Assembly: GCA_964488715.1 (NCBI GenBank)
Contig: CAZAVD010000004.1
Span: forward strand, 1 to 38,743
DNA from: an uncultured Gammaproteobacteria bacterium
Lineage (GTDB): Bacteria; Patescibacteriota; Patescibacteriia; UBA2196
DNA length: 38,743 nucleotides
Direction: 5' to 3'
The first letter of the stretch is position 1, and the number at the start of each line of letters is the position of its first letter. The notes beneath the pieces were generated by a model that did no database searches, was not told the DNA's origin, and saw only the letters and a program-made list of their open reading frames with translations. Of the stretch, positions 10,458 to 13,896 are shown piece after piece. The position numbers and the translations under genes were made by a program.

Positions 10458-11468
10458 ATGAACAAAATCCTTCCTTCTGGAAAACCAAACATTTTAATCA
10501 CTGGTGGAGCTGGTTTTATCGGATCACATCTAGCTGATGCTTTAGTTAATCAAAATCACATAATTGTGGTTGACAATTTTATTACTGGATCTGAAAAAAA
10601 CATTGATTTGCTTTTACAAAATCCTAATTTTGAATTTATAAAACATGATTTAACCAAACCATTTGATTTAACTAAATTTCCAGAACTTAAAAAATTTAAA
10701 GTTGAACTGCAAGGAGTGCAAGAAATTTATCATTTAGCCTGTCCAACTTCACCAAAAGAATATAGTAAATTTCCTATTGAAACTTTAATGACTAATTCTT
10801 ATGCAACTTGGAATGCTCTAGAAATTGCAAAACAATTTAAATCTAAATTTCTTTTTCTGTCATCTTCATCAATATATGGCGACCTAGATGCAAACCAAGC
10901 AATTAAAGAAGATAACTGGGGGCATGTTAATCCAATTGGTCCGCGCTCTTGTTATAATGAAGGAAAAAGATTTGCTGAAAGTTTAATAATGAATTATCAT
11001 GAAAAATTTAATATAGATACGAAAATTGCTCGCGTGTTTAATACTTATGGTCCGCGAATGAAAACAGATGATGGTAGAATGATTCCTGATCAAATTGTAG
11101 CTGCATTAGCAAATAAAGATTTAGTAATTTATGGAACTGAAAATGACGAGGGTAGCTATTGCTATATTCAAGATTTGATTGAAGCATTAACACGATTAAT
11201 TAAATCTGATTTAAACAAACCTGTTAATTTAGGCAGCACTGAAAAGCATAAATTATCTGAAGTTGCTAAAATGATTATTGAGCAAACAGAATCAAAATCA
11301 AAAATTAAATTTGAAAAAATACCTAAATATTCTGCTAAACAACAACTAATTCCTGATATTTCTTTAGCAAAACAAGAAATTGATTGGTTCCCAATTGTGA
11401 CTCTTGAAGAAGGCTTGCAAAAAACAATTGAAGATATGAAAGTAAAGGTTAGGGAATATAGGGGATAA
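10458..11468 (+). CDS. NAD-dependent epimerase/dehydratase, UDP-glucuronate decarboxylase (UXS)-like
   Basis: ITGGAGFIGSHL, IYHLACPTSP, WGHVNPIGPRSCYNEGKRFAE and RVFNTYGPRM motifs. Confidence 0.9.
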   Translation: MNKILPSGKPNILITGGAGFIGSHLADALVNQNHIIVVDNFITGSEKNIDLLLQNPNFEFIKHDLTKPFDLTKFPELKKFKVELQGVQEIYHLACPTSPKEYSKFPIETLMTNSYATWNALEIAKQFKSKFLFLSSSSIYGDLDANQAIKEDNWGHVNPIGPRSCYNEGKRFAESLIMNYHEKFNIDTKIARVFNTYGPRMKTDDGRMIPDQIVAALANKDLVIYGTENDEGSYCYIQDLIEALTRLIKSDLNKPVNLGSTEKHKLSEVAKMIIEQTESKSKIKFEKIPKYSAKQQLIPDISLAKQEIDWFPIVTLEEGLQKTIEDMKVKVREYRG

Positions 11469-11488
11469 AAAAACTATTTTTATTAATT

Positions 11489-11517
11489 AATTTCGGCTAA
11501 AATTAGCCGAAATTTTT
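11489..11517 (+). terminator. Rho-independent terminator / short palindrome after the UXS-like gene
   Basis: AATTTCGGCTAA-aa-TTAGCCGAAATT followed by TTT. Confidence 0.7.
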
Positions 11518-11519
11518 AG

Positions 11520-11566
11520 TTATCCACAGTTTTACCCTTGACAACTTCCAAATAGTATGTTATTAT
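11520..11566 (+). promoter_or_regulatory. DnaA box plus strong sigma70 promoter
   Basis: TTATCCACA at 11520-11528, TTGACA at 11538-11543, 17-nt spacer, TG-n-TATTAT with the hexamer at 11561-11566. Confidence 0.75.
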
Positions 11567-12065
11567 AAGAGCATAATGAAGAGAGAAAAAAAGTAATAAA
11601 CAAGATCTCTTTTCATTTAATATCATTGACAAGAGATCTTTTTATTTTATATAACAATTTAACTTTTAAATAAGCTGGCTATTTGGCCAACTTCATGTAA
11701 GCTTGTGTCAAGTAGCCGACTTATTTAAGGGTTAAAATTTTAAACTTCTAGAGAAGAGAGATTAGCAAACTGGCATTAAATCTTATTTTATCTGCCAGTC
11801 ACTGTTTACTTAAAACTTCTCTGAAGATTTAAGAATTTAAAACATTTTCACTAATTTGGAGATTAGTCGCAGTTATGAAAAGGCTAAATCTGGTTTTACT
11901 AGATTTTCCCTTGGATTAACTGCTTGCCAGTATTTTGCTCTGTCAAATAAAACTGGTATTCCAAGCTCTTGGAATTTTGAGTGATGTGATTTCTCTAAAC
12001 ACATCATCCACTAATCTCCAGTTTAGTGGGAATGAAAAATAAAAAAACAAAATAAGGGATAAAAA

Positions 12066-12242
12066 ATGGAACTTGAAAAATTAAAAAAGCTAGCCATAAA
12101 TCTTTTGAATTATTATAAAGACTCAAAAGATCCATTGGCTTTTAAAGAAGCTATACGAATAATCACAAATGAAATCAGGCCAAAACAAGGTCTAGCTGAT
12201 TTTTTAAATGATTATTCAAGAATAGCTGGAATAAAAATTTAG
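12066..12242 (+). CDS. Putative 58-aa small protein embedded in the structured RNA
   Basis: ATG at 12066 with AAGGGA upstream, TAG at 12240-12242. Sequence MELEKLKKLAINLLNYYKDSKDPLAFKEAIRIITNEIRPKQGLADFLNDYSRIAGIKI; below the ORF-track cutoff. Confidence 0.4.
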   Translation: MELEKLKKLAINLLNYYKDSKDPLAFKEAIRIITNEIRPKQGLADFLNDYSRIAGIKI

Positions 12243-12359
12243 AAAAATTGTCAGAAGTTTAATATTTATACAACAAAACTTCTGACCTTTTCTAAGTTTC
12301 TAAATTAATTTTAGAAGTTTAGAAAAGTGGAAGAGAGTTTAAAAATATAGTATAATAAG

Positions 12360-12399
12360 GATGTTAACCCCACCCTTCGCGAAGGGTGGGGTTAACATC
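12360..12399. repeat. 40-bp perfect GC-rich palindrome
   Basis: GATGTTAACCCCACCCTTCG|CGAAGGGTGGGGTTAACATC. Confidence 0.95.
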
Positions 12400-12519
12400 A
12401 AAAAGCTGTTGGTTTGAATTAGAGGATAAAACAATCTCTCTTCTCGTCCCGCAATACTGTGGGACAACTATCCTTTAAATCAATTTTCTTGATCAAATCA
12501 AGAAGCCAACAGCTTTTTG

Positions 12520-12563
12520 GTTTTTAATCATTATGGCACGGTCGTGCCATAATGATTAAAAAC
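12520..12563. repeat. 44-bp palindrome, copy 2 of the TTTTTAATCATTATG family
   Basis: GTTTTTAATCATTATGGCACG-gt-CGTGCCATAATGATTAAAAAC; the right arm contains the prmC stop codon. Confidence 0.93.
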
Positions 12564-13389
12564 TAATTATTACAACTCTATTCCTTCCGGCCAAATCTTT
12601 AATAAACTTAATATTAATTTTTCCAAGCAGTTTTTGAACTGTTTTTTTTATTTCATTTTTTTGACTTGAATCAAATTCTAATAATATATATTTTGGCTTA
12701 TTTTTTAATTTACTAATCTGCTTTAATAATTTGCTTATAAAAAACAAACCATCTTTTCCAGCATATAATGCTTTCTGGGGTTCAAAAAATAAATCTTTAC
12801 TAACTTGTTTTTTATATTTATTTGGTAAATACGGGAGATTAGCTATTAAAATAGAATTTGTAAAATTAATATTTAAATTTTTCAATAAATCAGATTTTAT
12901 AAATTTAATTTTATTTTTTATATTATTATTTTCTGCATTTTTTTTCGCAATACTTAATGCCTGTTTAGAAATATCTGTTGCATAAAATTTTTTATTTTTA
13001 ATATTTTTAGCAAGAGAAATTATTAAACATCCAGAGCCAGTTCCAATTTCAATAATATTTTTTATATTTTTATTTTTTTCTAATAACTTTAAACTTTCTT
13101 GAACTAAAATTTCTGTTTCAGGACGGGGAATTAAAACATTTTTATTAATTAAAAAATCCAAACTATAAAATTCTTTCTTGCCAATAATATATGCCACTGG
13201 CTTTTTTTTAATTCTTTGCTTAATAAATTTTTTAAATTTATTTTCTTGTATTTTACTTAATTCAAATTCTGGATAAGAATAAATAAAAGCTTTATTTTTT
13301 TGAATCACAAAACATAACAAAACTTCTGCATCAAGATTTGATAATTTCTTTTTCTCTATGGCAAATTTTAAAATTTGACAAATTTTCAT
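12556..13389 (-). CDS. prmC: Release factor glutamine methyltransferase PrmC/HemK
   Basis: PVAYIIGKKEFY, VLIPRPETE, EIGTGSG, ANLPY (NPPY variant) and KDLAGRNRV; near prfA. Confidence 0.95.
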   Translation of the reverse strand: MKICQILKFAIEKKKLSNLDAEVLLCFVIQKNKAFIYSYPEFELSKIQENKFKKFIKQRIKKKPVAYIIGKKEFYSLDFLINKNVLIPRPETEILVQESLKLLEKNKNIKNIIEIGTGSGCLIISLAKNIKNKKFYATDISKQALSIAKKNAENNNIKNKIKFIKSDLLKNLNINFTNSILIANLPYLPNKYKKQVSKDLFFEPQKALYAGKDGLFFISKLLKQISKLKNKPKYILLEFDSSQKNEIKKTVQKLLGKINIKFIKDLAGRNRVVIISF

Positions 13390-13409
13390 ACAAAGATTAT
13401 AATATAATT
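13375..13409. promoter_or_regulatory. Bidirectional promoter between prmC and the antitoxin gene
   Basis: Plus strand TTGACA(13375-80)-17-TATAAT(13398-403)-6 nt-ATG 13410. Minus strand TATAAT(13401-396)-6 nt-ATG 13389. Confidence 0.7.
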
Positions 13410-13616
13410 ATGAACACAATAAATTTACCATTAACTTTAGACCAATTAGCTTTTGCATTAAAACAACTTCCAAAAAATGATGTTGAGGAGCTTGATTTAA
13501 TGTTGGATAAGAAATTAAAACAAACTGTTTTAAAAAGAGGAAAAACCGCTTATCAAGAATTTAAACAAGGAAACACTTTATCTTTAAACGATATTAAACA
13601 AGAATTAAATGTATAA
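13410..13616 (+). CDS. Putative antitoxin (68 aa) of a type II TA pair
   Basis: Small gene overlapping the RelE-like toxin start; C-terminal 'EFKQGNTLSLNDIKQEL' is typical of RelB-like partners. ATG 13410 preferred. Confidence 0.7.
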   Translation: MNTINLPLTLDQLAFALKQLPKNDVEELDLMLDKKLKQTVLKRGKTAYQEFKQGNTLSLNDIKQELNV

Positions 13617-13896
13617 ATTAGAATTCTTAAAACCTGTTAGAAAAGATTTGAAAAAACTCTTGCCCCAAACGCGAGAGTTTATTATTAATGATTCATTGCC
13701 AAAATTACAACATAAACCATATCAAGGCATTCAACTGCGAAATGAATTAAAAAAATATTATAAATACTCAATAAATCACAAAGGAGTAACTTACAGAATC
13801 ATTTATCAAATTTATAATCAAGAAGAAATTATTTTAATCATTGCTATTGGTGCTCGAGAAAAATTTTATGAAAGAATATTAAGACGGCTAAAATAA
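13609..13896 (+). CDS. RelE/ParE-family toxin
   Basis: 95-aa basic protein with MYKLEF...KDLKKL and YRIIYQI...ILIIAIGAREKFYE. Confidence 0.88.
   Translation: MYKLEFLKPVRKDLKKLLPQTREFIINDSLPKLQHKPYQGIQLRNELKKYYKYSINHKGVTYRIIYQIYNQEEIILIIAIGAREKFYERILRRLK

Follow-up and report, generated by a model that had tools for sequence, protein, structure and literature searches.

Two probable structured RNA genes in tandem, and a possible pairing between them, in an intergenic gap of a Patescibacteria genome

Introduction

What fills the 1088-nt gap between a gene for an NAD-dependent epimerase/dehydratase and prmC in an uncultured member of the Patescibacteria? The gap is the largest stretch free of open reading frames (ORFs) in the window, by which we mean the whole piece of DNA analysed here, 38,743 nt of contig CAZAVD010000004.1 (assembly GCA_964488715.1, deposited as an uncultured Gammaproteobacteria bacterium and placed by GTDB in the lineage Patescibacteriota, Patescibacteriia, UBA2196). 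The window is contig C4 of its genome, G000, which comprises 865 kb in 77 contigs with 29% G+C. A first-pass annotation, made from the letters of the sequence, had pointed to a kilobase-scale gap insulated by an upstream terminator and opened by a consensus promoter, and had proposed that it encodes one ~950-nt RNA in the size range of OLE, ROOL and GOLLD or, as a fallback, a cluster of structured RNAs. Gap, terminator-like hairpin (11489–11514) and promoter (11538–11566, 11 of 12 consensus matches) are all present, and it is the fallback that matches what the comparisons with related genomes show. Very probably, the gap holds two independent, conserved genes for structured non-coding RNAs (ncRNAs) on the + strand, J5 behind promoter P1 and TD behind promoter P2, together with lineage-specific filler. 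The fuller statement, in which the two genes stand in tandem, TD pairs with the J5 precursor and the pairing acts through attenuation, we put at roughly 45%.

Results and discussion

The gap folds as RNA, preferentially on the + strand

The elements on which the argument rests are the following.

11538–11566, + strand: promoter P1, TTGACA-17-TATTAT, TG-extended
11573–11598, + strand: leader with purine box R1, GAAGAGAGA (11578–11586), predicted to pair with either the 5′ arm of H1 or the TD loop
11595–11655, + strand: H1, a terminator-like hairpin in the fold, followed by UUUUUAUUUUAU; candidate attenuator
11652–11742, + strand: H2, a long genus-only hairpin, found in the window and G001 and absent from G002
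11741–11835, + strand: H3, a hairpin conserved in a six-genome alignment, with purine box R2, GAGAAGAGAGATT (11751–11763)
11843–12036, + strand: J5 core, ~190 nt, a closing helix and four hairpins with conserved loops
11990–11999, + strand: loop of hairpin P5 in the J5 core, TTTCTCTAAA
12250–12327, + strand: two hairpins, one terminator-like (12250–12286), the other (12287–12327) also present in G001, G009 and G012
12330–12338, + strand: purine box R3, GAAGAGAGT, overlapping the weak −35 of promoter P2
12351–12356, + strand: TATAAT, −10 of promoter P2, within the element 12328–12356
12360–12399, + strand: perfect 40-nt palindrome (20+20), read as the 5′ hairpin of the TD transcript
12400–12518, + strand: TD, ~120 nt, a rod of helices P1 and P2, an apical loop, hairpins P3 and P4, and a closing helix followed by a U run
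12433–12445, + strand: near-invariant apical loop of TD, AATCTCTCTTCTC / AAUCUCUCUUCUC, single-stranded in folds

On the + strand, the region 11573–12520 folds at −312.9 kcal/mol, against −180.3 ± 8.5 kcal/mol for shuffled sequences (z −15.6; 0 of 20 shuffles as good). The helices named in the first-pass annotation all recur in the minimum free energy (MFE) or centroid fold, namely, H1, H2, H3, the five-way junction at 11843–12034, the palindrome at 12360–12399 and the branched domain at 12400–12518 with its U run. Its hairpins within 12080–12320 survive in part: 12244–12335 does fold (z −6.2, −29 kcal/mol on the + strand), whereas those at 12080–12240 overlap an ORF and are unaligned in relatives. 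Among single elements, J5 (z −10.7 on the + strand versus −8.1 on the − strand; −76.8 versus −63.5 kcal/mol) and TD (z −9.4 versus −6.3; −47.8 versus −43.2 kcal/mol) stand out, followed by H2 (z −7.7 versus −4.2; −36.6 versus −24.7 kcal/mol), H3 (z −3.8 versus −2.9) and H1 (z −2.7 on the + strand, −15.8 kcal/mol).

The same folds bear on a reading in which the gap consists of DNA-level features, that is, palindromes of the REP-like or terminator-repeat kind and sites for DNA-binding proteins in non-essential spacer. The − strand, at −288.6 kcal/mol, also folds far better than its own shuffles, with a similar z; the palindrome at 12517–12566 belongs to a genomic repeat family; the purine and CU boxes described below form one duplex motif; and the box TTATCCACA lies at a fixed distance from promoter P1. 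However, that palindrome apart, the region is unique in G000, and the + strand is the more stable one both overall (by 24 kcal/mol) and for every element compared on both strands. Furthermore, helices are kept through G–U pairs, which would be meaningless for duplex DNA, and multi-branch architectures, conserved loops and compensatory changes are kept across genera. We regard the DNA-level reading as very improbable. The first-pass suggestion of selection on a + strand RNA is upheld by compensatory changes in H2, H3, J5 and TD, by many G–U pairs and by conserved promoters.

J5, a five-way-junction RNA of the family

J5 is closed by a 19-bp helix and carries a long hairpin P2, conserved at its apex, one or two hairpins that vary, and hairpin P5, whose loop follows the consensus (C)UUCUCUA(G/A)A in the window's family. 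An RNAalifold consensus of nine distinct full-length sequences contains 48 pairs, 23 of them with compensatory changes, and such changes are abundant already between the window and G001. The covariance model of J5 (model R2) matches 11846–12031 with 169.5 bits. It finds a single copy in all 12 other genomes of the family, in 6 of 10 genomes of the sister family, f3, and in 0 of 1 of family f2. Applied to 151 genomes of the class, it returns G000 itself, two other members of the family, one weak match and, in family f16, two J5-like RNAs. Each of these J5-like RNAs, 140 nt long (G036, C5:149759–149899; G103, C1:755777–755917), has a TTGACA promoter of its own and a 5′ hairpin, and is closed on the outside by an A run with a U run, as TD is; they hint that J5 and TD may share a design or an origin.

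Gene 1 would produce, from promoter P1, a ~470-nt precursor comprising the leader with R1, H1, H2, H3 with R2, and J5. Promoter P1 is conserved in G001, G005, G008 and G010. Since in genus g11 a TTGACA-type promoter lies just ~45–60 nt upstream of J5, J5 looks like the product of a P1-type promoter; the extended leader that contains H1, H2 and H3 seems to have been elaborated within the family, and J5 is taken to be the functional product of gene 1. In the leader, the arms of H1 differ in G001 and G002, yet their pairing is kept (judged by eye), and H2 displays double compensatory changes relative to G001, a member of the same genus. H3 is nearly identical in G001; over six genomes its consensus has 24 pairs, 8 with compensatory changes. 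Within this hairpin, box R2 is paired over its first half and falls in an internal loop over its second.

Upstream of promoter P1 lies a further conserved element.

11520–11528, + strand: TTATCCACA box, 9 nt upstream of the −35 of promoter P1

This box, which we take to be the DnaA-box consensus, is kept in G001 and also occurs upstream in G008; its start-to-start spacing from the −35 is 18 nt in G000, G001, G005 and G010. The 865-kb genome contains 48 copies of TTATCCACA, versus 10.4 expected, about nine of which lie 0–10 nt upstream of a TTGAC −35 (by eye), and similar boxes are found near TD or J5 promoters in G010, G005 and the loci L073 and L077. A replication origin at this box was considered and set aside: the genes on either side of the gap run towards each other, and boxes of this kind are common close to promoters in the genome.

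Between J5 and promoter P2 there is one short ORF.

12066–12242, + strand: orphan 58-codon ORF with AAGGGA upstream, non-conserved, which may not be a gene

With this ORF downstream of J5, behind a plausible ribosome-binding site, and with a six-codon mini-ORF in the leader of both the window and G002, the upstream region could be read as a cis-regulatory 5′ leader of the ORF, either riboswitch-like or a leader-peptide attenuator. Among 5.8 billion proteins, however, the 58-codon sequence matches itself only, it belongs to no Pfam family, and nothing aligns with it in G001 and G002, where it is absent from this position; we rejected it as a conserved gene. Moreover, the mini-ORF is not kept outside the genus, and what follows J5 in 15 genomes of the order is TD, not a conserved gene. 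For want of a conserved downstream gene, the leader reading is largely refuted, and we find it scarcely credible.

TD, a putative small RNA found in several families

Gene 2 would produce, from promoter P2, a ~160-nt RNA made of a 5′ hairpin and TD. In all six genomes first compared, the two ends of TD read AAAAAGCUG...CAGCUUUUU and its centre contains AAAAUCUCUCUUCUC; upstream of it lie TATAAT or TGnTATAAT and a hairpin unrelated in sequence. At the position of promoter P2 itself, one of these two motifs is found in G001, G002, G004, G008 and G010, and a hairpin of unrelated sequence takes the place of the palindrome in most TD loci (by eye). The RNAalifold consensus of seven family sequences has 29 pairs, 15 with compensatory changes, and a TD model (model R1) scores 120 bits on the + strand of the window versus 29 bits on the − strand. 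Model R1 finds TD in 10 of 24 genomes of the order. In addition, four more genomes of the family, G006, G009, G011 and G012, carry downstream of J5 a TD with the same loop and a different closing-helix sequence (by eye).

Pattern scans extended this set. The scan of species genomes gave 16 stretches, 6 with the closing helix, and that of metagenome contigs gave 47 stretches, many of them chance matches or duplicates; a regular expression with a screen for closing-helix complementarity kept 29 distinct sequences, to which three variants were added, so that 32 were aligned. Their MFE folds form a rod (helices P1 and P2) topped by a one-sided loop, usually followed by hairpin P3. In 27 of the 32 MFE folds, the loop motif, A(A/U)U(C/U)UCUCU(C/U)CUC, is left entirely unpaired. 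In helix P1, pairing holds in 96% of cells, and both sides have changed in 7 of 15 pairs; none of 500 shuffles reaches the observed covariation score, and sliding the partner strand by 1–3 columns lowers pairing to 38–58%. Its 49 G–U cells would be A–C mismatches on the opposite strand. A second subfamily of 12 sequences has a consensus of 31 pairs, 11 of them compensatory. The 3′ strand of the closing helix ends in a U run in 32 of 32 sequences, and a promoter-like site (at least 9 of 12 matches, at most 100 nt upstream) precedes 22 of 26 distinct TD copies, compared with 9 of 26 reversed controls; a perfect TTGACA is found upstream of 15 of the 26. With its own predicted promoter and a terminator-like 3′ end, TD has the hallmarks of a free-standing small RNA (sRNA) gene.

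The model built from all 32 sequences (model R3) finds TD in at least 15 of 151 genomes of the class, in at least nine families, and in at least 3 of 151 genomes of a phylum-wide sample, the window's own genome included; these counts are lower bounds, since strict filters were used. In G183, one of the latter three and a member of another class, TD contains the loop motif and is preceded by a 5′ hairpin and a perfect TTGACA-17-TATAAT promoter. In other families and in this other class TD occurs without J5, each time with a near-consensus promoter. Its neighbours are murJ and lepA in four contigs, hrcA and grpE in three, lepA in three genomes of the family and, in the window, the convergent prmC. 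Because the neighbours differ between lineages, TD is not the leader of one particular gene.

Two further sets of observations relate to TD. In the loci L095 and L073, the interval that separates it from J5 holds another small conserved element (AAAUCCAUGCUCAACCCAUGG...) as well as a CUAUUAGUUUUCUC stretch that is also conserved. In G000, G+C-rich hairpins of the form CCCCUCC-UUGAAAAG-GAGGGG followed by AGAGAUUUUU recur at C14:14706, C18:7895, C22:5453, C35:8395, C1:47715 and other places, and the 5′ flank of the C14 copy resembles the TD loop motif of other families.

One transcript or two?

Pieces of the region are found by BLAST at the same place in six genomes from five genera of the family. 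These loci lie downstream of the epimerase gene and adjoin prmC where the contig extends that far. The gap measures from ~0.9 to 2.4 kb, and only certain blocks align, in constant order, from which we conclude that the region is modular. In G002, a member of the same genus in which the promoter region is masked by N, H2 and H3 are missing, H1 leads directly to the junction, and just ~45 nt separate the aligned J5 and TD blocks. Other relatives have inserts of 0.3–0.9 kb between the modules. In G010, H3 and J5 are separated by a 108-codon ORF with a strong ribosome-binding site, and in G001 a 92-codon ORF on the opposite strand separates J5 from TD; ORFs inserted in relatives match no Pfam family. 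The locus of G008 (L012, ~350–1190), otherwise A+T-rich, carries an 850-nt G+C-rich insert between the J5 leader and H3, with a 132-codon ORF, no Pfam family and no Rfam match.

This comparison speaks against a single ~950-nt multi-domain RNA transcribed from promoter P1, in which the terminal domain would be tied to H3 by long-range pairing. Several features do fit such a molecule: all modules lie on the same strand, the MFE fold of the whole region pairs the 5′ purine box with the TD region, J5 and TD nearly touch in G002, and the complementarity of H3 and TD described below would also suit an intramolecular contact. TD, however, has its own conserved −10 and 5′ hairpin and stands alone in other families and in another class. 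Moreover, H1 and the hairpin at 12250–12286 are terminator-like in the window, and the variable inserts in relatives include ORFs, one of them on the opposite strand. With H2 and H3 missing from a genome of the same genus as well, one RNA of OLE, ROOL or GOLLD size, as first proposed, is improbable.

The TD loop is complementary to the J5 leader

If J5 and TD are separate RNAs, are they connected? The TD loop AAUCUCUCUUCUC (12433–12445) is the exact complement, over 13 nt, of GAGAAGAGAGAUU in H3 (11751–11763), with a predicted duplex of 13 bp and −20.9 kcal/mol. The loop is also exactly complementary over 9 nt to GAAGAGAGA in the leader (11578–11586; predicted duplex −14.2 kcal/mol), and a third purine box, R3, lies just upstream of promoter P2. 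Box R1 and the CU-rich 5′ arm of H1 can form a predicted 12-bp hairpin of −11.4 kcal/mol, possible before the 3′ arm is transcribed, and the full leader favours the terminator-like H1 (−15.8 kcal/mol) followed by UUUUUAUUUUAU. In the 865-kb genome, GAGAAGAGAG has three copies, namely, H3, the antisense of TD and one elsewhere, and GAAGAGAGA has four, three of them at the locus when the TD antisense is counted.

Complementary boxes of 9–14 nt are found in the J5 leader and H3 within the window's order. Among 19 J5-bearing genomes of the order, 15 have a CU box downstream of J5 together with a purine box upstream, and four (G018, G019, G015 and G021) have neither. In eight genomes of five genera, the leader can be seen by eye to carry a purine box ahead of a terminator-like hairpin with a CU-rich arm or loop, and two metagenome contigs share the layout of promoter, purine-box leader, J5 and TD. 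In genus g11 (G019, G015 and G021; loci L132–L134), the RNA that takes the place of TD retains the closing helix and one of the inner hairpins; its CU loop has been lost, and so has the purine box of the J5 leader.

We tentatively propose that TD pairs with the precursor of J5 and promotes termination at H1, or links the two RNAs in some other way. The TD loop would base-pair with R1 and R2 of the precursor. With R1 bound by TD, the 5′ arm of H1 would no longer be sequestered; H1, thus freed, could form and end transcription early. TD would in this way set the level of J5, or else both RNAs would act as a pair.

Several points weigh against this proposal. Clean covariation between the TD loop and its partner is lacking, and the pairing rests on the complementarity of near-invariant boxes. 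The four genomes without boxes are phylogenetically clustered, being three of one genus and one of another, all in f3, and the box patterns were defined after the sequences had been inspected; co-occurrence of the boxes is for both reasons suggestive and not independent evidence. In genus g11, an alternative complement between loop and leader is found in one of three genomes (G019, 10 nt exact); it is unconvincing in G015 and G021 and was not counted as covariation in support. Purine and CU boxes are, in addition, one double-stranded DNA motif in two orientations, and low-complexity sequences rich in purines or in C and U pair in several registers. The stability of H1 is modest, as 5 of 200 shuffles fold equally well, and the promoters, the RNA ends and the stop at H1 are all read from the sequence. 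Beyond the order, the 11-nt complement of the TD loop occurs in four genomes of other families as the TD antisense and at three further sites, two of them identical copies and all within apparently open reading frames. Since TD outside the order thus comes without J5 or an extended partner, the loop must have a more general ligand. Scans of G000 for targets gave 4–5 copies of each perfect complement 9-mer, versus 4.2 expected, 2–3 of which are the locus itself or the TD antisense; a scan for 11-mers that tolerates G–U pairs returned mostly GC-rich terminator hairpins.

In the main rival explanation, J5 and TD are housekeeping RNAs whose ligands are proteins. They might, for instance, partner RNA polymerase in the manner of 6S RNA or act as decoys for a protein with affinity for pyrimidine-rich single strands, and their purine/CU complementarity would be incidental or secondary. 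A loop that stays near-invariant across families that have no 11-nt partner fits a protein or another universal ligand better, and both RNAs are single-copy, many of the copies being strongly promoted. By contrast, the fact that purine and CU boxes are present or absent together would then have to be explained separately. On balance we hold this rival to be rather unlikely; its 6S form is considered with the known RNA families.

Relation to known RNA families

The first-pass annotation had recognized no known RNA class in the gap, and database searches agree. At gathering scores, the 4227 models of Rfam 15 give no match across the whole window and none on five homologous loci. With the threshold relaxed to E ≤ 10, positions 11400–12700 attract hairpin-like microRNA and snoRNA models alone, all far below threshold (best 36.1 bits versus a gathering score of 99), and at E ≤ 5 seven TD loci give four matches, none overlapping the TD coordinates. 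ARAGORN finds no tRNA and no transfer-messenger RNA (tmRNA) in the window. Identity with RNase P RNA or tmRNA was rejected, as the genome's copies are located elsewhere (C3:12464–12859 and C16:16472–16866).

6S RNA deserves a closer look. TD and J5 share with it a size class of ~160–190 nt and a closing helix formed by the ends, with an A run and a U run; they are single-copy, housekeeping-like and strongly promoted, and no other 6S RNA is detectable in G000, which favours a 6S-like protein partner. However, RF00013 has no match at E ≤ 1 in the genome, where control genomes do match, nor at E ≤ 5 on the seven TD loci. 6S RNA is a long hairpin with a large two-stranded central bubble, and an invariant loop sequence, as in TD, is not known to be typical of it. 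The apical loop of TD is strongly one-sided, with 13–17 nt on the 5′ side versus 0–4 nt on the 3′ side (by eye in 32 folds), and J5 is a five-way junction. We rejected 6S identity for both RNAs.

Identity with SRP RNA was rejected as well: RF00169 has no match in G000 or in any of 31 relatives, and RF01854 has none. The SRP system as a whole is undetectable here, with the small SRP RNA in 0 of 31 genomes and the large one in 0 of 1, whereas all control genomes match. The M domain of Ffh (PF02978) is found in neither G000 nor any of five relatives (two of them single-contig), and the SRP54-type GTPase domain (PF00448) has no match above cut-off in G000; control genomes match both.

The similarities with Yfr1-type sRNAs, plasmid attenuation and 6S RNA lie in design and do not imply membership. 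Bacterial sRNAs of the Yfr1 type display an ultraconserved unpaired motif between helices. TD resembles them in being apparently free-standing, with its own predicted promoter and a terminal U run, and in its near-invariant 13-nt single-stranded motif framed by helices of variable sequence. Unlike them, it is longer and rod-like, has a 5′ hairpin and shows no similarity to any Rfam family; moreover, the sole extended complementary partner found for it is a neighbouring ncRNA precursor and not an mRNA start region. In the rep leaders of plasmids pT181 and pIP501, an antisense RNA drives transcription attenuation. The proposed scheme is similar in that a small RNA would bind a nascent leader and block an anti-terminator, so that a terminator hairpin could form upstream of the product. 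It differs in that the regulator, TD, would be encoded in trans, ~800 nt downstream on the same strand, with 9–13 nt of complementarity, and in that the regulated product would be a structured ncRNA, not the mRNA of a replication protein. Like the large orphan RNAs OLE, ROOL, GOLLD and raiA, the present RNAs are highly structured and were found by comparison in an intergenic gap; unlike them, the ~950 nt are not one unit, the conserved units measure ~190 and ~120–160 nt, and Rfam gives no match.

The locus and its genome

The gap is framed by the following features.

10458–11468, + strand: NAD-dependent epimerase/dehydratase gene, 5′ neighbour of the gap
11489–11514, + strand: terminator-like hairpin closing the epimerase/dehydratase gene, an 11-pair stem followed by a T run
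12517–12566, no strand assigned: palindrome, probably a two-way terminator common to the ends of TD and prmC, with a 20-pair stem
12556–13389, − strand: prmC, 3′ neighbour of the gap

Beyond prmC, in the interval that separates it from prfA, the opposite strand carries a ParE-like toxin gene (13609–13896) and, upstream of this gene, a small ORF (13338–13616). The palindrome at 12517–12566 has further copies at C4:30474–30520, C4:3840–3892 and C11:18342–18380, 85–93% identical. A GC-containing hairpin, flanking T runs and copies across the genome mark it as a member of a terminator or repeat family, and ~45-nt palindromes of this family at gene ends are probably two-way terminators. The sequencing runs that contain the stretch are eight DNA runs from two studies (marine or seawater metagenomes); the number of RNA runs is 0. 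A truncated piece of 23S rRNA at C17, ~14391 (− strand), is the sole rRNA located in G000 via conserved primer-type motifs, which gave no 16S rRNA, and the rRNA operon seems to be largely unassembled.

Significance

The first reading is corrected in that no new giant RNA is present here. Instead, the locus holds two new ncRNA families with good covariation support, both absent from Rfam 15. Patescibacteria, also known as the candidate phyla radiation (CPR), make up a large share of bacterial diversity and have tiny genomes. In the titles and abstracts that we consulted, almost no Patescibacteria ncRNAs beyond the universal ones are described and RNAs such as these do not appear, although reports in subscription journals or supplements would be missed by such a survey. 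The proposed pairing of TD with J5 offers hypotheses, namely, duplex formation and attenuation at H1, that could be tested in vitro without cultivation.

Going further, J5 and TD could together make up a new housekeeping RNA system of the Patescibacteria, each contributing one RNA subunit, a joint reading that we consider quite unlikely. Were it true, the invariant CU loop of TD would be a functional site conserved across classes, and J5 would be an order-wide, single-copy five-way-junction RNA forming a ribozyme or the core of a ribonucleoprotein. The two would be coupled by RNA–RNA pairing and sRNA-driven attenuation, the DnaA-box-like element, with its constant spacing from the J5 promoter, would tie J5 to the cell cycle, and the system would sit in a lineage apparently without SRP. 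Whichever form the link between J5 and TD may take, the retention of over 500 nt of structured, strongly promoted non-coding sequence in genomes of 0.7–1.2 Mb argues for an important function.

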